DNA of 64,000 nt from an uncultured Bacilli bacterium. GTDB taxonomy: Bacteria; Bacillota_I; Bacilli_A; RF39; UBA660. The DNA lies in assembly GCA_934086955.1 (NCBI GenBank), contig CAKOIN010000004.1:46719-110718 (forward strand), read 5' to 3'. This document shows, piece by piece, positions 5,461-48,653 of this stretch (its first letter is position 1; each line of letters starts with the position of its first letter). Both the position numbers and the translations under genes were made by a program. The notes below the pieces were generated by a model. It had not been told where the DNA came from. It did not search any database and saw only the letters and a program-made list of their open reading frames with translations.

Positions 5461-8400
5461 TTAATAGTCATCTCCTTTCACTCCATCAGATTTAATAACT
5501 TGAATACCAAAGTTATTACTATTAGTTCTAATTTCATTCATAAACGAAGTAGTACATTCATAGAATCCTCCAGTTGAATCACTTATAGGTACAGCATAAC
5601 ATTGATCGTAAGAGTTATCTATATATCCACCTCTAACATTTTTATTTTTATTGTATTCTTTTATTTTCTTAATAGCATCACTATTTAATATGAAGCTATA
5701 TTGTAAGTATTTATTACCATTGCTATACATATCACTAGCAGTTGCTTCAATAGCATCTTTTATATCAGAATTTTCTAACCAGTTATTACCAATAGGTCTT
5801 TCAGCTGGGAATAGATTTCCTAATTCAACATTTCTATAAATAAATCCATATCCTTTGGAATTAGTATTTTTATCACTCCAGTGAGCACAAGCACCTTCTT
5901 CACGAATTATTGGTACTCCGTTTTTTATTTCATAACATAAGTTATTACAAGCATCAGATAAATCAACATTACCAGCATCATCAACTTGAAGTTCACAATC
6001 ATATAAATTAGTTATATTATAAACTTCATATTGACAAGTAAATTCATAATAATCATGATTTAATATACCAGATTTACTTAATTTAGAACCAACTTTAGTA
6101 TATCTATGTTTTATATCATAAGCTTTTGTTGAACCACTTTCAGTATCCATACTTACAGGGAATACATATTTATCTAAGCTAAGTGAATTACCAGAACCAG
6201 CTCCTTCCCTAACTATCCCAGTATAAGCTTCTGTAGAATATTCTTTTGGCTGCCAGAAATCAGCTTCACTAACAACTGTAAATATAGCAAAGTCATTAAT
6301 AGGAAGTTCAATTTGTTTACCGCTAACAGCATTCTTCTCACATTTAGCATTAGTGTCATAGCCACTACAAGAAACTAAATCATGTTTTCCTAATAAATTT
6401 GATGCAGATAAATCAACTTCAGAGTTGAAATCACCATTATAGCAACTAGCATAATATGAATTTCCACCCTTCTTTTCATTTTCATCATTAACACAATATT
6501 TAGTTTGTTGTTCTTGTTCTTTAATATCTTCAATTTGTGTTAAAATTTCAACTTCTTTGCCAAAAGTAGTTGTTGCACCATAATTATGATCATCATAAGT
6601 TATGTCTAAACCAATACATTCTTCTTCATTTTCACAGTTAGCAAGTTTAAGAATATAGTCCTTAGTTGTTCCACCATCTATTGCATGAGTGAATGTTCCT
6701 TGATACTTAGGTCTATGTGGAGTATACCCACTAAAGTCAACATAACTCGCACTATTGTAATATAAATTCAAATCAGTACTTCTATATAAGTTACAGTTTT
6801 CCAATTCATATATTAATTGAGTAACATTATTAACAGCAGATTTAAATGCACCCCATAATGCTGCCTCTCGATCTTTAACTTTACAAGGCTCGTCACCCGC
6901 CTCGCCTTCTACACATCCAGAAGAGGCACCAGCAGTACAACTATAATGATGACAAGTATCTTTCTTTCCATTTATAGTACATGAATAAGAATCACACTCA
7001 CTATATGATGTTCCGTTACTTTGATGATATCTACCATCAATATCACTTGGAGCCACTGGACTACTACTAATATTAAATGTTACTTTATTTGAAGTGTTTT
7101 TACTATTATTATTTATATTATAGCCATTTCCACTACCAGTAGTTGATTTTGTATATCGTGGGCTGCCACTGTAAGGCCAAGTAAATACATGATCAAAACC
7201 TTCAAGTGTATCAGAAACAGGACAGGTACTTGGACAACCGCTACCACTGTTATAACAAAATACAGTAGGAGCATGATTTAATTTAGGATTACAACTACCC
7301 CAACCTTCATTTTTATGTAGTGTCTCATATGCTTTCCAACTTGACCAAGCATCAACCATATCTTTAACAGCTTTACCATACATTTTTTGCCATGTATTAT
7401 ATCCTTGTTTAATATAGGAATCATACTTAGAAGTTGTAGTCGAATAATTATATCTTGGATTTCTGTGGTCATAATATATCTCTGAAGCACATTGTCTCTT
7501 TTGAAGAACCATTGCTGTAAGAGAATGACCATTTGTTAATTTTCTCTTATCACCAAGAACATTTTCTATTTGATATTTAAATTGCATTCCAGCATAAACT
7601 CTTGTTTTATTTGCCATATAGAATTCAATCTCTTCACGACAGAATATTCTACATATACCAACATCAACACCATATTTATCGCTGAAATCATATTGATTTC
7701 TTTCACTAACATTACAAGCATTCATAATACAGTTCATGTAAGGCTCTTCAACAGTACCTTGATCGTAAGTATCATAAATACCTTGATTAAATTCTCCATA
7801 ATTTGAACAATATCCAGGAAGTGAATTTTGTACTTCAAAATTATCACATCTCTTTATTGGACCATTGCTTTCACAAGGACATACAACTGTAGTAGTCTTT
7901 GTTGCTATTTGTTCTAAGTCTTCTTTTTTAACTGTACTACCTGGAGTTACATCCTCATCCCCAGGAGTCTTACCATTAGTTTGCCAACCATTTATATCAA
8001 AACCTACAAATTGCTGAGCAATTTCACCGCTAGCAGTTACATAGTTTTTAATAAATGCATTTGGCCCACTACCGCTTTTCCCACCTGGAACACCATATAT
8101 GTGAACAACTAAATAATTATCAGTTTGAGTTGTCTCAGTTTGAGTACACATTTGAGAATATTTAGCAGTAAATTTACAATAATTTTTATCACAACCACCA
8201 GGCAAATTCTCAGTTGGAATAACTCTACCATATTTATCAGTAACAGTAATAACAACATTACATCCATCATCTAACTCATTACAGTATTTAACTGGAACTT
8301 CAATAGGAGTATCTTTTGTTACTATAGTTGAACCAATAAACATTTTTTTGAATTCTAATTCTATTTGAACATTTTTATTCTTTTTATCAAATTCAAAGTT

Positions 8401-10359: not shown

Positions 10360-11013
10360 TTATATACCATGTTTAACTTTCTTAAATATCTTATTTCCAA
10401 TTAATGCAGTAATTGCACCAAATACAACAAATACAATTATATTAATACCCCAGGAAAAAAAGAAATCTTTAGCAGCATCTACAATCAATTCAAATGTAGT
10501 TTTCTTAGGAGTTTCCGGTTTAACTACAGGATCTATTTTTTTTTCAATTTGAGCTATCGCATCATCTAATATCTCCTCTGTTAATCTATAAGATAAAAAT
10601 TTAGATGAACAAAGTTTTAATTTATCTTCGTATGGTTCACACTTTTGTGTTCTAAAAAATGAATTATAATAAGGAAGAGTAATAAATATTGTATTTAAAG
10701 TGCCTGTACAATCTCCTGAAGCTTCCACATAAACAGTTAAATATTTTCCTTCTTCTTGACCACTTAATGTGACAGCATAATTATCACTACCATTACTTAT
10801 ATACACATTTTTATTAATCATTAAATACATCCCAGGAAACACATTATAAAAAGTAACAGTAAATGTTTTACTACTCATACTATAAGATGTTTCATAAGTT
10901 ATATCACTCGCTAAACCTTTTAATTCATTATATTTTGAATCAGTACACTCTGCTTTAATAGAACCTAACATCAAAAACATACTAATAAATATTATAAATA
11001 TTTTTTTCTTCAT
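10360..11013 (-). CDS. Small secreted protein with signal peptide and C-terminal TM anchor (same topology as 9591..10280)
   Basis: ATG with AGGATGGTGA RBS; signal peptide 'MLGSIKAEC'; C-terminal 'INIIVFVVFGAITALIG' then KKVKHGI. Confidence 0.65.
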   Translation of the reverse strand: MKKKIFIIFISMFLMLGSIKAECTDSKYNELKGLASDITYETSYSMSSKTFTVTFYNVFPGMYLMINKNVYISNGSDNYAVTLSGQEEGKYLTVYVEASGDCTGTLNTIFITLPYYNSFFRTQKCEPYEDKLKLCSSKFLSYRLTEEILDDAIAQIEKKIDPVVKPETPKKTTFELIVDAAKDFFFSWGINIIVFVVFGAITALIGNKIFKKVKHGI

Positions 11014-12620
11014 TATTCACCATCCTTAATAAGTACTGCATGAACAACCATTCTTCTATTTCCTCCACCAGCACAAGTAGATAATGTTAATATTTTATCT
11101 CCGTATTCAACTGTATCTTTTGTTTTAAAACCACTTCTTTTTCTAATCATTTTAACAAAAGCATCGAAGTCTTCTTTACTATCAAAATTATCAACTAAAT
11201 AATCAGTAGTATAATCCACTCTATAAGCAGCAAATATTTTAAACTTATATGATTTAGCCGGAGTATCTAATGAAATAATCATATTTTCACTATTTTTTCT
11301 AAAGCTACTATTTAGAACTCTATGTAATGTCCCAAACATAGTTCCATTTAACATACTATGACCATAAACAATACTATTATCATCAAGTTCACTCATATTA
11401 TTTCTATAATCTAAATATATCCATCCCATACTAGTTTTCTTTTTATAGAAATCTCTTTTTAAATAATAACTATTATCAGAATGTTGTACTAAAGGATAAG
11501 ATATATTAGTACCATTAACAACTAAATAACCTACTGTTTCATTATTAATTTTTTTTAATTTAGAAAATACTTTATCAAAAGTATATTTATCTTTAACTTG
11601 TTTATCATTTAATTTCTGATCAAGTATAACTCCATCATTAGTTAATTCATCTTCGCTAACATTATCTGGTAAAGCAAAAGAACTATTTATTATTTCTTGA
11701 TTAACTTCATCTATACTCATCTTTTCTATATATTCATATGATTTATATATAAGTAAACAAACAACACTTACATATACAGCCATTATAGATATAAGTTTTA
11801 AATTATTAAATGTTAATTGTTTAAACAAATTATTTCTTAAAAAATCATTTGAATATAATATTCTAAATTCACATGTATAATCTTCTTTACATTTCTTATT
11901 TAATTCTTTTAACCATGCAAAATTATTTACTATAAAGTTACCTTTATCTTTTCCTTGATGTAAAAACACTATTATATTTCTTGCTTCATCATTTTTAACT
12001 AAATCTATTACATTACTTATTAATTCCTTAGAAAATACATAAATATGTATTGATTTTAAATTATAATTAATTCTTAAGAATTCTTTTATATCATCAAGTA
12101 AACCAGGATATTCTTCTCTTATTTCTAACATCTTTCTATAATACAATGTTTCATAATCAAAAGAATCCTGTGATATCATAAATCTATCACTTACTTTATT
12201 ACGATTATATAAATTAACTACAACACCTTTATCATTAAATTTATCTTTAATAAAAGATGGCATAAAATAACAATCTATTTGTTTTAAAGTATTAACTGTT
12301 AAAAATAATTCATAATCATTTAAACCAATAGTGGATGGAATATCTAATTTTAAATATTTCATCTTAAGTCTTATCATCATAATAACTACATATTTAAATG
12401 TAACTAATCTTCTTACATTCATAGTATCTAAATTATTATAATTTTCTTTTATTTTATTAATTATCTTTTCATAGTTATTACTGTAATATCTCATAGAATA
12501 ATATAAAGTATTATCATTAAACTCATTTTTATTAACAAATTTAGATAATGATTCATCAATAGACTTAAAATCATATGTAAGTACATTATCTTTAATTGAA
12601 ATAATTAAATACTCTTTCAT
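11013..12620 (-). CDS. srtB: Class B sortase with a roughly 300-aa N-terminal extension and internal TM segment
   Basis: Catalytic motifs 'SIVYGHSM' (His) and 'ILTLSTCAGGGNRRMVVHAVL' (TLSTC Cys plus Arg), which is class-B-like; AGGAGA RBS. Confidence 0.7.
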   Translation of the reverse strand: MKEYLIISIKDNVLTYDFKSIDESLSKFVNKNEFNDNTLYYSMRYYSNNYEKIINKIKENYNNLDTMNVRRLVTFKYVVIMMIRLKMKYLKLDIPSTIGLNDYELFLTVNTLKQIDCYFMPSFIKDKFNDKGVVVNLYNRNKVSDRFMISQDSFDYETLYYRKMLEIREEYPGLLDDIKEFLRINYNLKSIHIYVFSKELISNVIDLVKNDEARNIIVFLHQGKDKGNFIVNNFAWLKELNKKCKEDYTCEFRILYSNDFLRNNLFKQLTFNNLKLISIMAVYVSVVCLLIYKSYEYIEKMSIDEVNQEIINSSFALPDNVSEDELTNDGVILDQKLNDKQVKDKYTFDKVFSKLKKINNETVGYLVVNGTNISYPLVQHSDNSYYLKRDFYKKKTSMGWIYLDYRNNMSELDDNSIVYGHSMLNGTMFGTLHRVLNSSFRKNSENMIISLDTPAKSYKFKIFAAYRVDYTTDYLVDNFDSKEDFDAFVKMIRKRSGFKTKDTVEYGDKILTLSTCAGGGNRRMVVHAVLIKDGE

Positions 12621-12689: not shown

Positions 12690-13808
12690 TTAACCTATTC
12701 TAAATGCTGGTGAAACTCCACCTAACCCATTTGGCTCAGTACCTAGCCAACCACCATGACTATATACTAAATAAAAAGTATCATTTAAACAAGAAAAAGT
12801 TGAACGAAGCCACCACCAAGTAGCAACAGTTCCTTTTTTCTTTATTGCACCACTATAACTATCTGTAGTAACTCCTAAATTTTGATAATAATCTAACTGT
12901 CTTGTTAAATTACTTGTAGTATCATAATCTATTGTACTTGTTGTTCCTTGTTCCCATACCTCTACTGTACTAAGTAAATATAATTTATCTATTGATACAA
13001 AATTATCTGTATCTTCACTTCCATGACCAGAAACCACTCTAGTATCTATTATTACACTCTTTAAATCATTTGGTAGTGCATTATATATATCGTTATTTAC
13101 AAATAAATACAAGTTTGATGCAGGCCATCCATCCTTATTCCACCCTTGATAATAATTTTTCCCTTTATAAATACCACCAGGATTCATAATATGAGTAGTT
13201 ATTATATCTGCAAACTCAATAACAAATCCACAAGCTGTTTGTGAGAAACCTTCTGTTGAACATTCACTTGGTGTTGATACATTTGCTATTCTTACTGTAT
13301 GTGTACCATAAGTTCCTAAATCTATCTCTTTTGTATCTCCTACATTATAACCTTCAATATCAGAATTTCTAACATTATCTACTATTGTTTCCCATGAATC
13401 GTTTTTAAATGATTTTTTTAATTTTTGACACTCACCTTCAGTAATCTTGTCAATTGTTAATTCACTTAAATTTTTAAATTTTCCACTTAAACAATATGTA
13501 TCATTACTTACTTGAAAATCTTTAATATTGCCTTTGCTGTCTAATTTAATATTGTAATCTAAATTATTTGAGTCTAAATCCAACTTATTACTTGAATTAG
13601 ATATATTGTTAACTTTATTACCCTTCATATTTTCAGATATATATTTTTTAGATACTTCTTTATATATAGTTTTAGCTTCTGTTAAAAACACATCTTTCTT
13701 AGCTTGATTAAACATATTAAGTACATTAGGAAGAGCTATAATAACAAGTAAAGCAAGTATTGCTATAACAGCTAATAATTCTACAAGAGTAAAACCATTT
13801 TTATTCAT
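12690..13808 (-). CDS. Type IV pilin/pseudopilin-like protein (class III signal peptide) with a 340-aa globular C-terminal region
   Basis: N-terminus 'MNKNGFTLVELLAVIAILALLVIIALP' is the prepilin-peptidase cleavage/N-methylation motif (G/F-T-L-V-E); GAGGTG RBS. Confidence 0.75.
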   Translation of the reverse strand: MNKNGFTLVELLAVIAILALLVIIALPNVLNMFNQAKKDVFLTEAKTIYKEVSKKYISENMKGNKVNNISNSSNKLDLDSNNLDYNIKLDSKGNIKDFQVSNDTYCLSGKFKNLSELTIDKITEGECQKLKKSFKNDSWETIVDNVRNSDIEGYNVGDTKEIDLGTYGTHTVRIANVSTPSECSTEGFSQTACGFVIEFADIITTHIMNPGGIYKGKNYYQGWNKDGWPASNLYLFVNNDIYNALPNDLKSVIIDTRVVSGHGSEDTDNFVSIDKLYLLSTVEVWEQGTTSTIDYDTTSNLTRQLDYYQNLGVTTDSYSGAIKKKGTVATWWWLRSTFSCLNDTFYLVYSHGGWLGTEPNGLGGVSPAFRIG

Positions 13809-19157: not shown

Positions 19158-21236
19158 TTACTTTTTAGATAAATATTTATGATTAGCAGCTATACTCTTA
19201 ATACCAATTCCATACTTAAATGCAATAGTAGCAATATTACCACTTATCTTAACAATTACCCCTTCTCCAAAGATAGTATGGATAACTGTATCTCCTGCTT
19301 TAAGTCCATCAACAGTAGTATTATTATACATATTACCTACTTTTTTAGTTTCCTCTTTCTTTACACTTTCATTCTTAATATTTATTACTGAAGAATCAAT
19401 TTCTTTAATAAATCTACTTTCAATAGTACCACTAGTTTTACCATATAAAGTTCTTGTTTTAGCAGAAAGTAAATATAATTTTTTCTTAGCTCTCGTTATA
19501 CCAACATAACAAAGTCTTCTTTCTTCTTCAAGTTCCTTAGCAGATTCAAAACTTCTACTATGAGGGAATATTCCTTCTTCCATACCAAGTATAAATACCA
19601 CATTAAATTCAAGACCTTTTGCTGAATGTAATGTCATAACATTAACTTTATTATCATCTTCTGTATATTGTCCTTTATCACTAACTAACATAATATTTTC
19701 TAAGAAAGTTGATAAGTCATATATACCATTATCTTCAAAGTTAACAGCTAAACTCTTAAACTCATTTAAGTTCTCTACCTTAGTATCACTTTCAATTGAT
19801 TTATCAAGTTCATATTCTCTTCTTAAACCAGTTTTAACAAGAACATCTTCAATTAAATCTGATAAGTTTAAACTCTTAGAGTCTTCAATTAATTCTAATA
19901 TCAATTTTTTAAATTCTAATTCTTTACCACTATCAATAGCATCAAATAATGATAAATCATTCATATTGGCTTTTTCTCTTATATTATCAATAGTCTTAGT
20001 ACCAATACCTCTTTTAGGAGTATTAATAACTCTTTCTAAGCTTACTGAATCATTAGTATTATATATTAAGTTTAAATAAGCAATTAAATCTTTAATTTCT
20101 TTTCTATTATAGAAATAATAACTACCTATTATATTATATGGAATATTATTTCTAACAAAAGCTTCTTCAACTGTTCTACTTTGAGCATTAGTTCTATAAA
20201 GAACAGCAAAGTCACTATAACTATAACCCAAGCTAACTAAATCTTTTATTTTATTAATAACAAAACTACTTTCTTTAATTTCATCTTCAACTTTTATGTA
20301 TTCAATCTTTTCACCTTCATCAAGAGATGTCCATAAATTAAGTTTAGTTCCTTCACTATTATTTTTAATAACAGAATTAGCCGCTGTTAAGATAGAATTA
20401 GTACTTCTATAATTCTCTTCAAGTAAAACTACATGAGCATTCTTATAATCTTTTTCAAAATTAAGTATATTTCTATAATCAGCATTTCTCCATGAATATA
20501 TAGATTGATTAGCATCACCTACTACAAAAATATTATTATATTTTTTAGCAAGTAACTTACATAATTCATATTGAATACTATTAGTATCTTGATACTCATC
20601 TACTAAAATATATCTAAATCTTTCTTGATATTTTTCTAATATATCTTTTCTTTTCTTAAATATTTCAACTGGTTTTAATAATAAATCATCAAAATCAACT
20701 GAATTATTTTCTTTTAATAATTTTAAATACTTTTCATATACAAGACCTATTACTTTATCATGTTCATTTAAAAATAATTTAGAAAATTCAAGAGGACTTA
20801 TACCATCATTTTTAGCTGAACTTATTCTACTTATAATATGTTTTATATCATAATCAGCTGGATCATAACTATTCTCTTTTAATATCCTTTTAATTAATGA
20901 TTTAGTATCATCTGTATCCAATATTGTAATATTTGATGAATAACCTATCGCATCATAATTTTCTCTTAATATTCTAAGTCCAAAAGAATGAAATGTACCA
21001 ATAAATATAGAATCAGCTACACTACCAATTTTATTTTGAACCCTAACTCTCATTTCTTTTGCGGCTTTATTTGTAAATGTTATTGCTAATATATTATATG
21101 GACTAACACCATCATCAATAAGTTTTATTATTCTTTCAGTTAATACTCTTGTTTTACCACTTCCAGCTCCTGCTAAGACTAAACAAGGTCCTTCTGTATG
21201 ATTAACTGCTTCTAATTGTTTATCATTTAATGTCAT
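19158..21236 (-). CDS. pcrA: ATP-dependent DNA helicase PcrA (UvrD family)
   Basis: 'LAGAGSGKTRVLTERI' Walker A, 'VDEYQDTN' motif II, 'TLHSAKGLEF' and 'VGITRAK' motifs; AGAGGT RBS. Confidence 0.9.
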   Translation of the reverse strand: MTLNDKQLEAVNHTEGPCLVLAGAGSGKTRVLTERIIKLIDDGVSPYNILAITFTNKAAKEMRVRVQNKIGSVADSIFIGTFHSFGLRILRENYDAIGYSSNITILDTDDTKSLIKRILKENSYDPADYDIKHIISRISSAKNDGISPLEFSKLFLNEHDKVIGLVYEKYLKLLKENNSVDFDDLLLKPVEIFKKRKDILEKYQERFRYILVDEYQDTNSIQYELCKLLAKKYNNIFVVGDANQSIYSWRNADYRNILNFEKDYKNAHVVLLEENYRSTNSILTAANSVIKNNSEGTKLNLWTSLDEGEKIEYIKVEDEIKESSFVINKIKDLVSLGYSYSDFAVLYRTNAQSRTVEEAFVRNNIPYNIIGSYYFYNRKEIKDLIAYLNLIYNTNDSVSLERVINTPKRGIGTKTIDNIREKANMNDLSLFDAIDSGKELEFKKLILELIEDSKSLNLSDLIEDVLVKTGLRREYELDKSIESDTKVENLNEFKSLAVNFEDNGIYDLSTFLENIMLVSDKGQYTEDDNKVNVMTLHSAKGLEFNVVFILGMEEGIFPHSRSFESAKELEEERRLCYVGITRAKKKLYLLSAKTRTLYGKTSGTIESRFIKEIDSSVINIKNESVKKEETKKVGNMYNNTTVDGLKAGDTVIHTIFGEGVIVKISGNIATIAFKYGIGIKSIAANHKYLSKK

Positions 21237-28707: not shown

Positions 28708-29253
28708 CTACTCCTTATTCTTAATCTTCTTTACATCTTTTATTATATCTCTTATTTCATAAAAATAAATATACCCTAATGGAATAATTATAATAAGAAC
28801 AAATCCTATTTTAGTATCCATTATCTTTTCAATTAAACTAAAAAACTTAAATTTATAAATATATTTACCTAATATTTCTTCTTCATAAACAGCTGGATCT
28901 TCACTTATATTTTGTATACCTTTTGTATAAAATATATTTCTTCCATTTTCAAGTTTTATACCAACTATTTTATGAGTAACTATTTTTCCTTTTAAATTAC
29001 CACTAGATCCCTTAAAAGTAATAATATCTCCTACTTTATATGAATCAGTACTTCTTTCTTGTACAAGAATTACATCACCTTTATGTAAAACAGGTTCCAT
29101 ACTTTTAGTAATAATAGAATATGTTCTAAAACCAAAAACACTAGGATTATTTGGAAATACTTTTTGATATACAGTAAATATAGCAAATAATATCAATAAT
29201 ACTAATATAATTATTTTTAAAATATCAAATATTTTTTTTATTACCTTTTTCAT
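28708..29253 (-). CDS. sipW: Signal peptidase I, ER/archaeal type (SipW-like)
   Basis: 'IITKSMEPVLHKGDVILV' has the S-M-E-P Ser box with a His; N-terminal TM and a C-terminal TM; adjacent to 'YAWF'-type substrates. Confidence 0.7.
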   Translation of the reverse strand: MKKVIKKIFDILKIIILVLLILFAIFTVYQKVFPNNPSVFGFRTYSIITKSMEPVLHKGDVILVQERSTDSYKVGDIITFKGSSGNLKGKIVTHKIVGIKLENGRNIFYTKGIQNISEDPAVYEEEILGKYIYKFKFFSLIEKIMDTKIGFVLIIIIPLGYIYFYEIRDIIKDVKKIKNKE

Positions 29254-42322: not shown

Positions 42323-42395
42323 TTTCTGTATTTTTATATAGTTAAAACTAATTATCATCATTATAATGAATTAATATAATAATATAGGAGGAAAT

Positions 42396-43070
42396 ATGAG
42401 TAATAATTGTAAATTAATGCCACCAATATATACATGTTATGGACCTACTGGTCCTACTGGGCCTACAGGACCAAGTGGAGGAGCTACTGGACCAACTGGA
42501 CCAACAGGTGCAACGGGACCAACAGGACCTACAGGACCACAAGGTCTACAAGGAATTCAAGGAGTTGCCGGAGCAACAGGTGCAACAGGACCTACTGGAC
42601 CAACAGGTGCAACGGGACCAACTGGACCACAAGGATTACAAGGAATTCAAGGAATTGCCGGAGCAACAGGTGCAACAGGACCTACTGGGCCTACAGGCAC
42701 AACAGGACCAACTGGACCTACAGGACCACAAGGTCTACAAGGAATTCAAGGAATTGCCGGAGCAACAGGTGCAACAGGACCTACTGGGCCTACAGGCACA
42801 ACAGGACCAACTGGACCTACAGGACCACAAGGTCTACAAGGAATTCAAGGAGTTGCCGGAGCAACAGGTGCAACAGGACCTACTGGGCCTACAGGGCCAA
42901 CAGGCGAAACAGGACCTGCAGGAGCCGCTGGCGAAACACCAGTAATAACTATCGGAACAGTAACTACTGGTGATCCAGGAACACAAGCACAAGCCAATAT
43001 AACAGGAGATGCTCCAAACTTTGTTTTAAACTTAACAATACCACAAGGACCTACTGGACCATCTGCCTAA
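42396..43070 (+). CDS. Collagen-like triple-helix repeat protein (BclA-like): Thr-rich G-X-T repeats with a globular C-terminal domain
   Basis: About 55 uninterrupted GXY triplets '[22 protein letters not shown]...'; AGGAGGA RBS; C-terminal '[30 protein letters not shown]'. Confidence 0.8.
42440..42910 (+). repeat. 9-nt (GXY) coding repeats with a higher-order ~117-nt unit inside the collagen-like gene
   Basis: Direct reading: 'ggaccaactggacctacaggaccacaaggtctacaaggaattcaagga...' recurs about four times. Confidence 0.8.
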
Positions 43071-43072
43071 TA

Positions 43073-44140
43073 ATGAAAAAATATAAAATATGTGTTTATG
43101 CAATATGCAAAAATGAAGAAAAATTTATTGAAAGATGGTATAAAAGTATAAAAGAAGCAGATTATATAGTAGTATTAGATACAGGTTCTACTGATAATTC
43201 AATCAAAAAGTTCAAAGAATTAGGAATAAAGTATGAAACAAAAACAATAAATCCTTGGAGATTTGATATAGCAAGAAATGAATCATTAAAACTAATACCA
43301 GAAGATACAGATATATGTATTTGTTTAGATTTAGATGAAATAATGCTACCAGGATGGAAAAATGAATTATTAAAACTATGGAATAACAATATAACAAGAA
43401 TTAAATATTTATATAATTGGAAACTAGATGAAAATAATAAACCATTAATTAGTTTTTATGCAAATAAAATACATAAAAATAAATATTATAAATGGACTCA
43501 TCCAGTTCATGAAATATTAAGTACAGATATAAATGAAAACATAATTCAAACAGATAAAATAATAATAAATCACTATCCTGATAACAATAAATCAAGAAGT
43601 TCATACCTTAAATTATTAGAACTTTCAGTAAAAGAAGATCCAAATGATGATAGAAATATGCACTATCTTGGAAGAGAATATATGTATTATAAAAAATGGA
43701 ATAAATGCATAGATACATTAATAAAACATTTAAGTTTAAAATCATCAACATGGAAAGATGAAAGAGCTGCTTCAATGAGATACATTGCTAGAAGTTATAT
43801 AGCATTAAAAAGATATGAAGAAGCTAAGATGTGGTATAAACTTGGTATAAAAGAAGCACCCTATTTAAAAGAATCATATATTGAATTAATGATATTATAT
43901 TATAATTTAAAAGAATATAATGAAGCAATTAAATATGGTAAGAAATCATTAAAAATCAAAAATAATAATCTTACTTATATAAATGAAATATTTTCAAAAG
44001 ATGAAACAGTTGATGACATACTAAGTATTTGTTATTATTATATAGGTAACAAAAAAGAAGGTTTAAAACATATTAAAAAAGCATTAAAAATTAATCCTAA
44101 TAATAAAAGAATAATAGAAAATAAAAAGTTTTTTGAATAA
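43073..44140 (+). CDS. Glycosyltransferase family 2-like N-terminal domain fused to TPR repeats (SgtA-like; candidate collagen-like protein glycosyltransferase)
   Basis: 'KICVYAICKNEEKFIERWYKSIKEADYIVVLDTGSTD' is the GT2 DXD-type N-terminus; TPR-like C-terminus; starts 2 nt after the collagen-like gene. Confidence 0.55.
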   Translation: MKKYKICVYAICKNEEKFIERWYKSIKEADYIVVLDTGSTDNSIKKFKELGIKYETKTINPWRFDIARNESLKLIPEDTDICICLDLDEIMLPGWKNELLKLWNNNITRIKYLYNWKLDENNKPLISFYANKIHKNKYYKWTHPVHEILSTDINENIIQTDKIIINHYPDNNKSRSSYLKLLELSVKEDPNDDRNMHYLGREYMYYKKWNKCIDTLIKHLSLKSSTWKDERAASMRYIARSYIALKRYEEAKMWYKLGIKEAPYLKESYIELMILYYNLKEYNEAIKYGKKSLKIKNNNLTYINEIFSKDETVDDILSICYYYIGNKKEGLKHIKKALKINPNNKRIIENKKFFE

Positions 44141-44160
44141 AAATCAAAAAACTTTTTTAT
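44127..44160. terminator. Bidirectional terminator between the convergent GT2-TPR gene and the third SipW-like gene
   Basis: 10-bp stem agttttttga / tcaaaaaact with loop ataaaaa, then TTTTTAT; the stop codon TAA sits in the loop. Confidence 0.55.
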
Positions 44161-44771
44161 ATATTACCATGTTGATTTTCTAAACTTAATAATTTACTTT
44201 TAAGTAAAAATAATCTAAATATTTTATAAACATCATAAGATATTATTGCAAGAGCTGGTATTAATATTGCAACTAACCAACCACTTTTTGAAGCTAAAAA
44301 AAATTGAATTCTTCCAAGTTGTGGTATTTTAAAATATACTTTACCAACTACATTACTTGGTTTTACTTTTTCATCATCGGCTTTAGCATTCGCATCACCT
44401 TGAACCATGAATAATCTTCCTGTATCTGGTGAATCTATAACTTTAACTATTCTATGTGTTATAGGTGTTCCGCCAAAGAAAGTATTCTCTGAATAAAAAG
44501 TAATAATATCTCCTTCTTTTAAAGTATCAGTATTAACTCGTTTTACAAATGCAACATCATATACATTAATAGTTCCAGTCATACTTGGACTAATTATAGT
44601 AAACAATCCAAACATAGGAGTTTTACCCCTACTCTTACATACTTTACCATCAATAACATAAAATACTAAAAACGAACCAATAATCATTAATATAGCTATT
44701 AGTGTATAACTAAATATATTAGAAATCATATGCAAAGTTCTTTTTCTTTTAAGCTTTTTATCCTCTTCCAT
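44157..44771 (-). CDS. Signal peptidase I-like protein (third, divergent SipW-like paralog)
   Basis: 'FTIISPSMTGTINVYDVAFVKR' Ser box; N-terminal and C-terminal TM helices; AGGTGAAG RBS; upstream of two SipW-cognate substrates. Confidence 0.55.
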   Translation of the reverse strand: MEEDKKLKRKRTLHMISNIFSYTLIAILMIIGSFLVFYVIDGKVCKSRGKTPMFGLFTIISPSMTGTINVYDVAFVKRVNTDTLKEGDIITFYSENTFFGGTPITHRIVKVIDSPDTGRLFMVQGDANAKADDEKVKPSNVVGKVYFKIPQLGRIQFFLASKSGWLVAILIPALAIISYDVYKIFRLFLLKSKLLSLENQHGNI

Positions 44772-44781
44772 AATACTTCAC

Positions 44782-45339
44782 CTATTCGTAATCCTTTTCT
44801 ACAACTATTTTAGCTATAAAAGTTTTACCAGATAAATAATTCTGATTTTGATTATTTTCTTTTAGTTTTATAGTTAATTTATATTCATGCATTGTCTCAG
44901 GTGTTATTATACCTTTACCTATTAAAGAAGTTTCAACAGGAACTAAAGTTTCATTAACTTCAATCACCGTATTATTAGAACTATTCTTATTAGATTTTCC
45001 AGTAATAGAATAAACAAAATTTTCATCAACTTTATCTATTAAAGGACTTTCTATTTCTAATTTTATTTTATATTTACCAACTGTATCTGTACTATAATTT
45101 TCAATTGAAAAATCAAGTGAAGTTTCAAAACCTGGTTCAATATTAGCTGCATTAATTTCGTTCTTCTCTGCATATCTCATTAACATATTAGCAGTTTTAA
45201 TAACAACCCTAGATTCGTCACCATTTTTAATTTTCTTAACATAGTAAGCATATGAAGTTCCAATAAGCATAGTAAACAAAACTATCAAAACAAGTAAATA
45301 AATAATAGTATTACATTTATTAACATACTTACCCTCCAT
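44782..45339 (-). CDS. TasA-like secreted protein (SipW-cognate signal)
   Basis: 'LIGTSYAYYVKKIKNG'; GGAGGA RBS; C-terminus 'YKLTIKLKENNQNQNYLSGKTFIAKIVV' shared with 45468 and 48657. Confidence 0.55.
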   Translation of the reverse strand: MEGKYVNKCNTIIYLLVLIVLFTMLIGTSYAYYVKKIKNGDESRVVIKTANMLMRYAEKNEINAANIEPGFETSLDFSIENYSTDTVGKYKIKLEIESPLIDKVDENFVYSITGKSNKNSSNNTVIEVNETLVPVETSLIGKGIITPETMHEYKLTIKLKENNQNQNYLSGKTFIAKIVVEKDYE

Positions 45340-45429
45340 AAACTATCCTCCATACTAATAATATGATAACAAAAATATTAAAAATATACAATAATTCAAA
45401 TAAAAAAGAATAAAATTTAACATTTTATT

Positions 45430-45463
45430 CTCATAAAATAAAAAGTAGTTTTAAACTACTTTT
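45430..45463 (-). terminator. Terminator after TasA-like gene 45468..46061
   Basis: aaaagtagttt-t-aaactactttt palindrome, followed on minus by UAUUUUAUGAG. Confidence 0.5.
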
Positions 45464-45467
45464 ATAT

Positions 45468-46061
45468 TTATTCAGTAATACCTTGAATAGTATCTGTTTC
45501 TAATGCAACATTAATCTTTGCACCAAATTTAGCTCCTTGAGCAGCATTTTGATCAGAACCAGTTTCTTTAAAATGAATAGTATAAGTATAAGTATGCTTT
45601 TCATATCCATTTAAAACTCCGTGTCCTAAAATTTTACTTGCAGTAGGAACTTGTTCTTCTGGAATAGAAACTAAAGTACCAACATTACTTGTTTTATCAC
45701 TAACACCTGTTAAACTATGAACAAATGCATCGCCAGCAGCTGCTGATAAAGTGTTAACATCGATAACAAGACCAATCTTATAAGCAATGCTTTCTGTAGC
45801 TTCAGAATCAGTATTAGCTATAGTGAATGTTTTAGTATCTTGTGGATCATCTTCTGGTCTAACATTTGTCATATTGATTAAACTACCATCAGTATATTCT
45901 ACACTACCTAACTTAGCAGTAGTAACGATAATACTAGAAGCATTAGCATTTCCACTAACAGAGATACTGAACCATGCAAATGTTGCACCAACAATTGCTA
46001 CTAATAAAGTTGCAATTCCAATTACAGATAAGAATATTGTTTGACCCTTACTGTTATCCAT
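45468..46061 (-). CDS. TasA-like secreted protein (SipW-cognate signal)
   Basis: 'VAIVGATFAWFSISVSGNANASS'; strong AAGGAGGA RBS; own terminator. Confidence 0.65.
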   Translation of the reverse strand: MDNSKGQTIFLSVIGIATLLVAIVGATFAWFSISVSGNANASSIIVTTAKLGSVEYTDGSLINMTNVRPEDDPQDTKTFTIANTDSEATESIAYKIGLVIDVNTLSAAAGDAFVHSLTGVSDKTSNVGTLVSIPEEQVPTASKILGHGVLNGYEKHTYTYTIHFKETGSDQNAAQGAKFGAKINVALETDTIQGITE

Positions 46062-46157
46062 TTTCGTATCCTCCTTTTATGATATAATCATAACATTATT
46101 TTTTTTATAATTCAATTATTTTTATAAAATTTATGATAAAATATCTTTGTGATAAAC

Positions 46158-48653
46158 ATGAAAAATAAAATTAAAAAAAACATACCAGAACTATTATCAT
46201 TCGTAATTCCAATATTAATAATGTTAATAGCTTGTTTAATAAGTAAAACTTATCCTCTAGGTGAACAAGCACTTTCAAAATATGATGGATACTACCAATA
46301 CATTGGCTTTACAAATTATTACAAAACAGTATTATTAGGAAAAAATAGTTTATTTTATTCATTTAAAGGTTTATTAGGATTTAACTTCTATGCTACTGCT
46401 ATATATTATTTATTTAATCCAACTAACCTACTTTGTATATTTAGTACTAATAACACTATATTAGAATATTATACCTTAATAATATTTTTAAGAATTGGTC
46501 TTTCAGGATTTACAATGTGTAAATATATTAAATATAAATATCCTAAACAATCTAATATAACATACATAATATTTAGTATCACTTATGCATTAATGGCTTA
46601 TAATGTAACATATTATTTTAATTATATGTTCTTTGATACAATAGTTTTATTTCCAATAACTATGTTAGGTCTTCAAAAACTAATAGATAAAAATGATAAC
46701 AGGCTTTATATAATATCTTTAACCCTATCAATACTGTCTAATTATTATATAGGATATATGGTATGTATATTCTCATTATTATATTTTATATATCAATCTT
46801 ATATTTATAAAAAAGATAAAAAAACAATTAAAAATTTTATAATATCAAGTTTATTATCAGGATTTATTTGTTCAATAATATTAATACCAGAAGCATTAGA
46901 ACTATTAGAGGGAAAAGCTTTATTATACAAAAGTGCTGATCAAACAGACTATTTCAAATTCAATTTAAATTTTTTAAATATATTTTATAAAGCATTTCCA
47001 GGAACAATAAATAATTATGATCTTAAATATGGTATGGTTAATATATATATTTCAATGTTAGTTATAGTTTTAGACATAAAATATTTCTTTAATAAGAAAA
47101 TTACTAAAAGAGAAAAGAAAGCAACAGCTATATTTATATTATTCTTCTTATTAAGTATTAGTTTTAATTTAATTGATTATGCATGGCAATTATTTCAAAG
47201 ACCAATATGGTATCCTAATAGATATATTTTTACATTTTCATTTTTATTGATAGTGATAGCTATAAAAGAACTTATAAACATAGAAAATAAGACTAATATA
47301 AAAAGAAATATATTATTAATACTTATATACATTTTATTAACAATTTATCCAATGTTAACAAGTAATGCAAATAACAATATAGTTAAAATAATAGCTTATA
47401 CACTTGGAATATTATTATTAATACAAAATACATTCTTTTTAAATAATAAAAATGCTAAATATCTTATAATATTATTATTCTTTATAGAAATAATATTTAA
47501 TACAATCATAACAATAAAATCAATGCCATTTTCTACAACAATAGAATATTATAAATTAAATAATGATTTAAATGAAAAAGCTGTTAATGAAATCAAAAAA
47601 CTAGAAAACAAAGATAGTTTTTATAGAATGGAAATAAACTCTAATGATATAAATAATACTGGACTTATTTATAACTATAATGGTATTAATCATTTTAATT
47701 CTATAAGAAATGGTAGAATAATAACTTTCTTTAAAAGATTTAATTATAAAACTAATAGTGATGCAAGTGTAACATTTGATAATTATAATCCATATATAAC
47801 ATCACTACTAGGAATAAAGTATATTAATGGAAGTAATAATGAATTTTATTATAAAAATATATATAATACTAATCCATATATCTATTTAAACAATGATTAT
47901 CTTAGCCTAGGATATATGATTAATTATAATGATATAAAATTCACTAACAGTAGTTATAAAAACACAGAATTATTAGTAAATTCAATGTTAAATAAAAATG
48001 AAAATATATATGAAATTGAAAAAATAAAACTACATAAAATAAATATAATTAATCAAAATAATACAAAATATATAAAACCCGAATCAGATACAGAGTCATA
48101 TATAGAAATATCTAATAAAGCAAAACAAGATATATTTCTTATACCTAATAAAAATATAACATATGAATTTGACTACAAAGTTTATATAAATAGCAAAGAA
48201 ATAAAAAATGCTTCATCAAAAAAATTTCCATTATTTATTAAAAAAGACGATAATTATAAAATAATAATGAAAACAAGTATAGCAAAACTTGAATATAATA
48301 ATACAAATTGGTATAAAATTGATTATGATAAATATATTAACTTTATTAATGAACTTAAAAAAAATCAATTAAAAATTACTAAATATAACAAAGATAATAA
48401 TATTGAAGGAAATATAATTGTTAATGAAAGAAAAACATTATTGTTAACAATTCCATATAACAAAGGATGGAATATAAAAGTTGATAATAAAAAAGTAGAA
48501 TATAAATCATGTTATGATACATTTATATGTTTAGATCTACAAGAAGGTAAACATAATATTAAATTAAATTATATACCAAGAGGTTTTATAATAGGTTCAA
48601 TCATCTCATTAGTTACATTAATTATTTCAATAATTTATATAAGAAAAAAATAA
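46158..48653 (+). CDS. YfhO-family polytopic membrane protein (putative glycosyl-transfer/glycopolymer modification)
   Basis: N-terminus 'KTYPLGEQALSKYDGYYQYIGFTNYYK...LFYSFKGLLGFNFYATAIYYLFNPTNLL' matches the YfhO N-terminal pattern (YPFG..QY..F..SFfYSFskgLGG..YYLlSP.NLL); 12+ TM helices. ATG start used instead of the ORF-track GTG. Confidence 0.6.
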   Translation: MKNKIKKNIPELLSFVIPILIMLIACLISKTYPLGEQALSKYDGYYQYIGFTNYYKTVLLGKNSLFYSFKGLLGFNFYATAIYYLFNPTNLLCIFSTNNTILEYYTLIIFLRIGLSGFTMCKYIKYKYPKQSNITYIIFSITYALMAYNVTYYFNYMFFDTIVLFPITMLGLQKLIDKNDNRLYIISLTLSILSNYYIGYMVCIFSLLYFIYQSYIYKKDKKTIKNFIISSLLSGFICSIILIPEALELLEGKALLYKSADQTDYFKFNLNFLNIFYKAFPGTINNYDLKYGMVNIYISMLVIVLDIKYFFNKKITKREKKATAIFILFFLLSISFNLIDYAWQLFQRPIWYPNRYIFTFSFLLIVIAIKELINIENKTNIKRNILLILIYILLTIYPMLTSNANNNIVKIIAYTLGILLLIQNTFFLNNKNAKYLIILLFFIEIIFNTIITIKSMPFSTTIEYYKLNNDLNEKAVNEIKKLENKDSFYRMEINSNDINNTGLIYNYNGINHFNSIRNGRIITFFKRFNYKTNSDASVTFDNYNPYITSLLGIKYINGSNNEFYYKNIYNTNPYIYLNNDYLSLGYMINYNDIKFTNSSYKNTELLVNSMLNKNENIYEIEKIKLHKINIINQNNTKYIKPESDTESYIEISNKAKQDIFLIPNKNITYEFDYKVYINSKEIKNASSKKFPLFIKKDDNYKIIMKTSIAKLEYNNTNWYKIDYDKYINFINELKKNQLKITKYNKDNNIEGNIIVNERKTLLLTIPYNKGWNIKVDNKKVEYKSCYDTFICLDLQEGKHNIKLNYIPRGFIIGSIISLVTLIISIIYIRKK

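Follow-up and report, generated by a model that had tools for sequence, protein, structure and literature searches.

Does a locus at which a threonine-rich collagen-like protein and a glycosyltransferase adjoin a SipW-type signal peptidase, TasA-like proteins and a YfhO-family membrane protein specify one glycosylated surface appendage, as a sequence-only reading had proposed, or does it hold more than one system? The genes lie in a window of 64 kb (the whole stretch of DNA that was analysed) from an uncultured, small-genome bacterium of the human gut, representing a Bacilli/"Tenericutes" MAG lineage; an ORF check of the window recovered all six ORFs of the earlier reading in the places it had assigned them (Table 1). 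The best explanation, to which as a whole we give a probability of roughly 0.6, is that the locus holds two unrelated things: a cassette consisting of the collagen-like gene and a GT2-TPR glycosyltransferase (GT) gene, and a SipW/TasA-like fibre module together with YfhO. The collagen/GT pair is a system of an already known kind.

Table 1. Features of the locus, in coordinates of the window.
Feature	Coordinates	Strand	Supporting evidence
Cassette promoter and ribosome-binding region	42352-42391	+	sigma-70-like elements and GGAGG
Collagen-like protein, 224 aa	42396-43070	+	Pfam Collagen, E 4e-24
Predicted GT2+TPR protein glycosyltransferase, 355 aa	43073-44140	+	PF00535, E 2.6e-10; TPR_2, E 8e-12
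SipW-type (archaeal/ER-type) signal peptidase I	44157-44771	-	TIGR02228, E 1.9e-24, 86.3 bits
Exported 185-aa paralogue of the 197-aa protein	44782-45339	-	E 2e-21; N-terminal hydrophobic segment
Exported 197-aa TasA-like beta-sandwich protein	45468-46061	-	signal ...IVGATFAWFS
YfhO-family (GT-C type) membrane glycosyltransferase, 834 aa	46149-48653	+	PF09586, E 5.5e-153
Exported 763-aa Asp/Cys-rich repeat protein	48657-50948	-	58 Cys; C-terminus similar to the 197-aa protein

The two genes of the cassette are read from the same (+) strand with 2 nt between the stop codon of the first and the start of the second, and are probably co-transcribed. The collagen-like protein has a short N-terminus bearing a Cys (residues 1-15), a stalk of GPT-rich collagen triplets (residues 16-181; 55 G-X-Y triplets, in which Thr fills 64% of the Y positions and Pro 49% of the X positions) and, after the triplets, a beta module of 43 residues (182-224); its gene contains a 99-bp unit repeated 4.5 times in tandem (42489-42923). 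In the GT, the catalytic domain (residues ~1-170) is followed by TPR helices (~178-355), to which further Pfam TPR models also match. Structure prediction returned a GT-A fold (pLDDT 90.9) with helical repeats at residues 178-354, and DTGS-D and the DLD(E) DxD motif, aligned to LDADD of the Clostridioides difficile enzyme SgtA, are invariant in 15 homologues. A scan of both sequences found no signal peptide, LPXTG motif or transmembrane (TM) segment: the collagen-like protein reaches a maximal hydropathy of 0.58 (KD19, 19-residue window), with no TM-like segment, and the GT, having no hydrophobic segment, is predicted to be cytoplasmic. Because it is without a TM segment, the GT is not a polyprenol-phosphate GT. 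The collagen/GT operon itself includes no dedicated exporter.

These features resemble those of the sgtA-bclA3 genes of C. difficile, which specify an O-GlcNAc transferase and its exosporium collagen-like glycoprotein and are likewise adjacent and on one strand. SgtA, with 358 residues a near match in length, has the same architecture, GT-A with a C-terminal TPR region (GT, 1-260; TPR, 262-358), and puts beta-O-GlcNAc on Thr of the BclA3 collagen repeats in vitro (PMC7157674). The BLASTP alignment of the window GT with SgtA runs from end to end (residues 6-354 against 4-352; 25% identity, 47% positives, E 3e-25), at a level that makes the relationship a distant one, below that of orthologues. 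BclA3, too, is a Thr-rich GXT collagen-like substrate; it lacks a signal peptide and has Cys just before its repeats. The two systems differ in gene order (sgtA then bclA3; here collagen then GT) and in the C-terminal part of the collagen-like protein, which in BclA3 comprises ~150 residues, whereas the window protein has no large globular domain. With just 43 residues past its triplets, the latter gave no Pfam match to the BclA_C head (PF18573); the BclA-like C1q-fold C-terminal domain that the sequence-only reading had proposed to look for is thus absent, and the tail matches instead a phage minor-tail module (PHROGs 4120 and 6614, ~2e-8).

A GPT collagen stalk and short N-terminus are shared also with the BclA family of the B. 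cereus group (BclA, L-BclA, F-BclA, F-Anchor), and partner proteins in MAGs of relatives, unlike the window protein, carry the Pfam BclA_C domain. Other enzymes build the glycans of Bacillus BclA. The L-BclA-type tip fibrils have a Cys/CC N-terminal connector, and F-BclA has a glycosyltransferase gene nearby (PMC12357932). The F-Anchor leader (...ALPPIYIPTG) resembles LMPPIY in the window N-terminus, a short motif that offers only a lead, and genes for ExsF/BxpB, ENA (DUF3992) or F-ENA (DUF4183) were not seen. SunS, the sublancin S-glycosyltransferase of the SPbeta prophage, was also compared with the GT and differs from it: the two are 15-17% identical, and SunS modifies Cys of a small bacteriocin precursor, for which there is no gene here.

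The pairing is widely conserved. In 50 of 79 related genomes, defined by GTs 55-83% identical to that of the window (the best 80 bacterial loci), a GPT-type collagen-like ORF lies directly upstream of the orthologous GT on the same strand; nine further contigs break off within 900 bp of the GT on its upstream side, several of them inside or beside a repeat gene. The same pairing occurs in a high-GC contig from faeces whose GT is 45% identical. Partner proteins in these bacteria have Cys-bearing N-termini of 15-40 residues, with Cys or a CC motif at the point where the GPT run begins, a feature shared with BclA3, and BclA_C occurs in those of loci L078 (E 8e-18) and L084 (E 9e-19) and weakly in those of L046 and L048. 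Because the collagen-like gene adjoins the GT in these 50 genomes and also in 40 of 80 viral contigs described below, the two products appear to be a dedicated enzyme-substrate pair, the collagen-like protein being the predicted substrate. The earlier suggestion that the pair mirrors BclA and SgtA is therefore supported, by the full-length SgtA homologue of identical architecture, by the pairing, by BclA_C in some partners and by the enrichment of a sigmaK/sigmaE-type -10 element in the family.

From these comparisons a mechanism can be proposed. Both proteins would be made in the cytoplasm, where the TPR half of the GT may hold the extended Gly-Pro-Thr chain while the GT-A half moves a sugar from a nucleotide-sugar to Thr at the Y position of the triplets. 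The linkage would be beta, because GT2 enzymes invert, and the sugar could, by analogy with SgtA, be GlcNAc donated by UDP-GlcNAc. The C-terminal beta module may nucleate trimerisation of the stalk. A glycosylated fibre with no export signal would have to be placed on a structure that forms within a cell. For this bacterial clade the likeliest target is the surface of the spore, which the mother cell would furnish as for BclA3/SgtA, and there the N-terminal Cys may cross-link the fibre; in phages with a homologous enzyme the target would be the collagen-like tail fibre. The assignment to the spore is especially uncertain for the present species.

Promoter sequences bear on this assignment in two ways. 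Across the family, CATAnnnTA with a Shine-Dalgarno sequence precedes 23 of 40 collagen genes, against 17 of 314 other genes (Fisher p = 4e-15). Among the 17 controls with the motif, eleven are stand-alone copies of the window-type GT, and one encodes a 5xLysM protein and has a SleC-like gene as its neighbour. The dinucleotide AC stands 16-17 nt upstream in 12 of 35 promoters, compared with 5.8% at other offsets, and in the C. difficile control AC-17-CATAnnnTA lies ahead of both sgtA and bclA3, which are sigmaK-dependent genes (PMC3789822). In a sister species (L104) the corresponding site carries a perfect AC-17-CATACACTA; compared with it by eye, the window promoter has lost 7 nt and its -10 is changed. 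Upstream of the window cassette no canonical sigmaK-type CATAnnnTA was found; the sequence there is sigma-70-like, TTATCA-17-TATAAT (42352-42380), followed by GGAGG (42387-42391). The sigK/sigE-type promoter motif, which the sequence-only reading had proposed to look for, is thus enriched in the family but missing from the window's own copy, which differs in this respect from C. difficile as well.

The near-consensus sigma-70 promoter hints at expression outside sporulation and invites an alternative that we consider improbable, though deserving of attention: a BclA-like cassette rewired to a housekeeping promoter, its head lost, whose glycosylated stalk serves elsewhere than on spores, perhaps as a matrix or surface component that leaves the cell on lysis or through some other export route. 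Erosion of the sigmaK-type element relative to the sister species, the same CATA-less promoter type in L018, L020 and L044, and the absence of BclA_C are consistent with such a change, as is the lack of sporulation genes in the window and in the ~10 kb beyond its start. RF39-type Bacilli are predicted spore-formers (PMC10868615), and related orders include both sporulating and non-sporulating species. Against vegetative use stand the absence of signal peptide, LPXTG motif and TM segment from both proteins and the lack of an exporter in the operon; moreover, in DNA of ~75% A+T, sigma-70-like hexamers are no commoner than in shuffled sequence (59 found, 65.7 expected).

A phage origin was given about the same low likelihood. 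The cassette would then be a domesticated or remnant tail-fibre gene with its fibre-glycosylating enzyme, decorating a phage or tailocin-like particle or acting as a decoy, rather than serving the spore. The collagen-like protein and its C-terminal module match tail-fibre and minor-tail PHROGs, the GT matches PHROG 13126 (E 1e-103), and GT homologues occur in at least 591 viral contigs, the best 80 of which encode enzymes 36-48% identical to the window GT and thus closer to it than SgtA (25%). In 40 of these best 80 contigs a GPT-rich, collagen-like ORF lies within 3 kb of the GT, the full-length homologues concerned being 39-48% identical to the window GT; 47 of 49 such ORFs are on the strand of the GT, and several of the partners are bona fide tail fibres. 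The phage homologues are annotated automatically as "beta-1,4-glycosyltransferase", a label that we counted against the best explanation, and our search of the literature found no functional test of phage GT2-TPR enzymes. Other observations count against this reading. Phage partners are fibres of 270-1400 aa with virion-attachment N-termini, whereas those in bacteria have the BclA-like Cys N-termini; the surroundings of the cassette in the window include no genes for phage structure, lysis or integration, and the 79 bacterial loci are flanked by diverse housekeeping contexts. All bacterial GTs among the best 80 loci share 55-83% identity with that of the window and the best viral ones 36-48%, consistent with a distinct bacterial group among the small-genome Bacilli of the gut, and the cassette family carries the sigmaK/E-type promoter motif.

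Assignment of the collagen/GT pair to a cassette of its own leaves the neighbouring module to be considered. The SipW-type peptidase exceeds the TIGR02228 cut-off (51.85 bits); the SipW model itself matches with E 2.9e-23, under the equivalog cut-off. Its gene is the last of a separate three-gene operon with those of the 185- and 197-aa proteins, which are 29% identical to one another and carry N-terminal export signals, a single hydrophobic segment in the case of the 185-aa protein. We retain the earlier label "TasA-like" with moderate confidence: neither protein has a direct Pfam or NCBIfam match or a PDB profile match to TasA, and the link is an indirect one, PF12389 (camelysin/TasA) being recorded for 3 of 120 homologues. 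The 197-aa protein is the probable major, SipW-processed fibre subunit and the 185-aa protein probably a minor or second one. The 763-aa protein, with one N-terminal hydrophobic segment and CDLNCDT(D/N)KDGK-type repeats, is part of this fibre module and not of the cassette: its C-terminal 100 residues align to the 197-aa protein (E 2e-5), and in L017 and L020 a homologue comes after the SipW operon. The module, but not the cassette, resembles tapA-sipW-tasA of B. subtilis in its SipW-type peptidase, its small exported beta-sandwich proteins with an ...ATFAWF signal end and its putative fold match to the TasA fibre; it differs in gene order, subunit sizes, the lack of a direct PF12389 match and the presence of three SipW paralogues in the window. 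The SipW-dependent operon would supply secreted TasA-like subunits and their 763-aa relative, functionally apart from the cassette.

YfhO, whose family identity is confirmed by a full-length match to PF09586 (residues 17-820) and which has at least nine TM-like segments, is independent of the cassette. Teichoic acid is the usual substrate of such enzymes, and lipoteichoic acid would be the predicted default here; in a contig from this strain or a close relative of it, genes for LtaS and LytR_cpsA_psr lie ~5 and ~9 kb past the point where the window starts. That the collagen glycoprotein, GT, SipW, TasA-like proteins and YfhO jointly make one glycosylated appendage, as first proposed, is very unlikely: the genes adjoin in the window and its closest relatives, and streptococcal YfhO-family enzymes can glycosylate surface proteins, but similarity to PgfM1/M2 is here partial (E 1e-67) and far under the equivalog cut-offs (228 and 222 bits against 1400 and 1500), adjacency is gone at GT identities of 74% or less, a syntenic relative has YfhO and the SipW operon with other genes where the cassette would be, YfhO is missing from another relative that keeps the SipW operon, transcription of the two gene sets is convergent, and cytoplasmic cassette proteins and Sec/SipW-exported fibre subunits follow incompatible routes. 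Among the 79 loci, SipW, TasA-like or YfhO genes flank the GT only in L017, L020 and L104. The SipW operon is kept in L097-L100 and L104; YfhO adjoins it in L097 and is absent from L100 and L020. In L044, a SipW gene and one for an Asp/Cys-repeat protein lie some kilobases from the GT.

The collagen-like gene and the adjoining gene for a GT2-TPR glycosyltransferase (hereafter the GT) form a cassette that belongs to an already known kind of system, a collagen-like protein plus a glycosyltransferase, and all six ORFs named in the sequence-only reading were recovered with unchanged coordinates (see table). The collagen-like protein contains 55 G-X-Y triplets, in which Thr occupies 64% of the Y positions and Pro 49% of the X positions; part of its gene is made up of 4.5 copies of a 99-bp unit, and the GT gene starts 2 bases past its stop codon. 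The C1q head that had been predicted is absent from this copy, which lacks a BclA_C domain and extends only 43 residues past the collagen region, as a module matching phage minor-tail proteins. Assignment to the secreted collagen adhesins of Scl/Lcl type, for which NCBIfam scores fall far below cut-off, was dropped, as the protein has neither signal peptide nor LPXTG motif. The N-terminus encoded at 42396-42440, like those in four related loci (L018, L020, L044 and the sister species L104), resembles the exosporium leader of Bacillus F-Anchor (...SALPPIYIPTG; PMC12357932) and, as in F-Anchor, directly precedes the collagen repeats, a likeness too short for statistics.

Features of the window discussed in the text
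Feature	Coordinates	Strand	Basis or remarks
Other surface machinery: T2SSE-type ATPase, 535-aa sortase-domain protein, two prepilin N-methylation-motif proteins fused to DUF6273 or DUF285 repeats	160-1359; 11013-12620; 12690-13808; 34886-36133
UvrD-type helicase ORF	19158-21236
RF03531 match (n00280, "C. difficile sRNA included into helicase gene")	19456-19553	-	Rfam, 66.9 bits; gathering score 65.2
LRR_5 protein, exported, 2443 aa	21370-28701		neighbour of SipW paralogue
SipW-type paralogue	28708-29253	-
SipW-type paralogue	36224-36778	-
364-aa and 230-aa pair, exported	36797-38596		neighbours of SipW paralogue
Collagen-like protein, 224 aa	42396-43070	+	Pfam Collagen, E 4e-24
GT2 domain plus TPR repeats (GT), 355 aa	43073-44140	+	domain matches
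SipW-type signal peptidase	44157-44771	-	TIGR02228, above cut-off
185-aa protein, exported	44782-45339	-	no family match
197-aa protein, exported	45468-46061	-	no family match
YfhO protein, full length	46149-48653	+	PF09586, E 5.5e-153
763-aa exported protein	48657-50948	-	about 30 CDLNCDT(D/N)KDGK-like repeats, 58 Cys, Asp-rich, calcium-binding-like

The C. difficile sgtA-bclA3 locus was retrieved by its published cloning primer. SgtA, a 358-residue protein of GT-A and TPR architecture, adds beta-O-GlcNAc in vitro to Thr of collagen-repeat peptides derived from the exosporium glycoprotein BclA3 and, where test peptides were substituted, also to Ser (PMC7157674). The GT aligns with SgtA over residues 6 to 354 at 25% identity (E = 3e-25), the two having DTGS-D and DxD motifs in common, and the proposed analogy to a BclA-type protein with an SgtA-like enzyme stands as regards mechanism and distant homology. 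To our knowledge, SgtA is the sole characterised member of the GT2-TPR enzyme type. The AlphaFold model of the GT is confident (pLDDT 90.9), and since the protein contains no hydrophobic segment it is cytoplasmic and not a polyprenol-phosphate glycosyltransferase. A role as CsbB/GtrB-like partner of YfhO was rejected on the lack of transmembrane helices and the absence of YfhO from nearly all loci. Searching the PDB with the GT sequence returned generic TPR designs only, SunS being reached by fold search and not by sequence; a sub-threshold match to PF23558, the collagen-peptide-binding TPR of prolyl 4-hydroxylase (E = 3.5e-4), is a hint only. Annotators should avoid calling the GT a polysaccharide "beta-1,4-glycosyltransferase".

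Near-identical or identical genes occur on human-gut metagenome contigs, Hadza samples among them, and a protein in the GT's 90% cluster carries the NCBI label [quoted passage not shown]. When relatives were scanned with one genome per species, at least 593 genomes were found to encode a GT relative. With few exceptions, the 80 best (55-83% identical) are MAGs of uncultured "Bacilli", "Tenericutes", Clostridium sp. CAG:451 or CAG:710 and Ca. Onthousia, complete chromosomes of about 1.5 Mb included, and correspond to small-genome Bacilli of the RF39/RFN20/ML615J-28 type. A GPT-type collagen-like ORF lies just upstream of the GT on the same strand at 42 of 79 loci if 8 or more triplets are strictly required, and at 50 of 79 when short-repeat proteins are added; nine more contigs are cut off upstream of the GT at a distance of under 900 bp, several of them in or next to a repeat gene. 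A faecal contig of high GC, with a GT at 45% identity, shows the arrangement too. Breaks or N-gaps are frequent inside the collagen-repeat gene (about 9500-9600 in L001; the starts of L017, L022, L043, L052 and others), one contig of the window's own species has the gene broken by a scaffold gap, and in L001 it is not called at all; these genes are therefore often lost in MAG assemblies and the collagen-like partners under-counted in their annotations.

The pairing extends to viruses. Full-length GT homologues were found on at least 591 IMG/VR contigs, and among the best 80 (36-48% identical) a collagen-like ORF lies within 3 kb of the homologue in 40. Nearly all such ORFs (47/49) share the strand of the GT, and their density near it is about four times that of more distant flanks. 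They are GPT-rich (among the 16 examined, Thr fills 37-92% of the Y positions), and the non-collagen domains of several mark them as bona fide tail fibres. From this conserved linkage and the SgtA precedent, we infer that the GT family is probably a dedicated partner of Thr-rich collagen-like proteins, in which case SgtA would be a model for a much larger family. The most interesting by-product of the analysis is this broader pattern, with one GT type recurring next to Thr-rich collagen fibres across gut Bacilli genomes and phage contigs by the hundred; this architecture beside the tail fibres of many phages predicts widespread phage fibre glycosylation. The literature searched yielded no description of this pattern across gut Bacilli and phages, and nothing relevant on glycosylated collagen-like tail fibres.

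Several features of the bacterial family as a whole fit a BclA-type role. The partner proteins have short N-termini in which Cys or CC immediately precedes the GPT run, just as BclA3 places ...CCPPSCVGPTGP just before its repeats, and a CC connector is known in Bacillus tip fibrils (PMC12357932). True BclA_C domains are present in some partners (L078, E = 8e-18; L084, E = 9e-19). The consensus sigmaK/sigmaE -10 element, CATAnnnTA, with a Shine-Dalgarno sequence after it, stands before 23 of 40 collagen genes versus 17 of 314 other genes at the same loci (p = 4e-15); of those 17, 11 are stand-alone copies of the GT and one encodes the 5xLysM protein described below. In 12 of 35 promoters an "AC" is placed 16-17 nt upstream, versus 5.8% at other offsets. 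These counts come from related sequences and are not fully independent. As a positive control, AC-17-CATAnnnTA was found before both sgtA and bclA3 of C. difficile, and bclA1-3 depend on sigmaK (PMC3789822). Gene content predicts both sporulating and non-sporulating species in the orders RF39, RFN20 and ML615J-28, with RF39 predicted to sporulate (PMC10868615). Should the two genes act as the inferred pair, members of this uncultured, reduced-genome gut lineage would, recorded among MAGs as Bacilli, Tenericutes or Mycoplasmatota, make glycosylated BclA-like fibres; this would be independent, testable evidence that a decorated spore surface is still built in the lineage, with a bearing on host-to-host transmission.

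Other genes in the MAG flanks also lie behind CATAnnnTA and a Shine-Dalgarno sequence (L053 4902-5822; L078 6260-7180, minus strand; L091 5290-7884), among them two 306-aa short-chain dehydrogenases and a 5xLysM protein whose gene adjoins a SleC-like gene with SpoIID and PG_binding_1 domains; the dehydrogenases and the 5xLysM gene are candidate mother-cell-expressed genes of uncultured Bacilli. In three related MAGs a module of about 40 residues ("...A.V.ITP / ..Y.IDF.IPQG") is split over two consecutive ORFs upstream of the GT (L078 1-851; L084 7061-7923; L085), its first half ending the collagen ORF and its second beginning the next, BclA_C-bearing ORF; a frameshift, an artefact of assembly or two separate chains might account for the split.

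For the window's own copy the evidence for a spore role is weaker than for the family. The suggested check for sigK/sigE-type promoters came out divided: the motif is enriched before the family's collagen genes, but is missing upstream of the window's. In the sister species L104, whose GT is 84% identical, positions 8230-8317 hold a perfect AC-17-CATACACTA; relative to it, the window at 42330-42395 has a 7-nt deletion, substitutions and a changed -10 that leave a sigma-70-like TTATCA-17-TATAAT, the downstream ATTAATATAATAATATAGGAGG being identical in both. In this comparison, made by eye, the promoter looks like a case of lineage-specific erosion or rewiring. Sigma-70 and terminator scans of the window gave counts at or below shuffled expectation and are uninformative in such AT-rich DNA (G+C about 19-31% in 2-kb windows). 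The one further gene in the window behind CATAnnnTA and a Shine-Dalgarno sequence, the third SipW gene (motif at about 29274), is compatible with chance, and no sporulation genes were seen in the window or in the Pfam tables of flanking genes. A broader proposal would recognise a general class of "collagen-repeat threonine glycosyltransferases", new to description, that serves the tail fibres of phages (viral contigs in the hundreds) as well as BclA-like fibres in uncultured gut Bacilli with small genomes, the cassette in the window's lineage having lost head and sigmaK-type promoter and perhaps been repurposed for a non-spore function; we consider this unlikely, at perhaps one chance in five. 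If true, a spore or phage fibre module would have been rewired during genome reduction.

The sequence-only reading had joined the cassette, the SipW and TasA-like proteins and YfhO in one appendage locus, a view that synteny does not support. In L097 the interval from the ABC transporter to SipW is filled by other genes in the cassette's place, and at 74% GT identity the cassette adjoins SMC and RNase III; gene order shows that the cassette is an insertion beside a separate SipW operon. The 185- and 197-aa proteins are paralogues (E = 2e-21), and the C-terminal domain of the 763-aa Asp/Cys-repeat protein downstream of YfhO is related to the latter (E = 2e-5); each of the three has a single N-terminal hydrophobic segment. 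PF12389 was found on a few homologues of the small proteins, and the order 197-aa protein, 185-aa protein, SipW is kept in species where the 197-aa protein shows 50-65% identity. Paralogy, N-terminal segments, PF12389 in homologues and kept gene order therefore point to a SipW-dependent, TasA-like fibre operon of its own. A profile of the 197-aa family retrieved nothing from PDB sequences, TasA included, and for the small proteins no SipW-cognate or TasA model came up in NCBIfam, even with E allowed up to 10. YfhO lies beside the SipW operon in L097 and L104, not in L100 or L020. Its usual substrate is lipoteichoic acid, which is probably made here because LtaS and an LCP enzyme are encoded near the window start (about 5 and 9 kb beyond it, in a matching contig).

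The 763-aa protein differs in length by strain, with 745 residues in L001 and 733 in L002. The three SipW-type paralogues lie within 16 kb, each with a different set of exported neighbours, and suggest that a single small genome has several modules dedicated to SipW substrates. The RF03531 match, inside the helicase ORF, probably reflects conserved coding sequence. The window is also dense in other surface machinery, as listed in the table.
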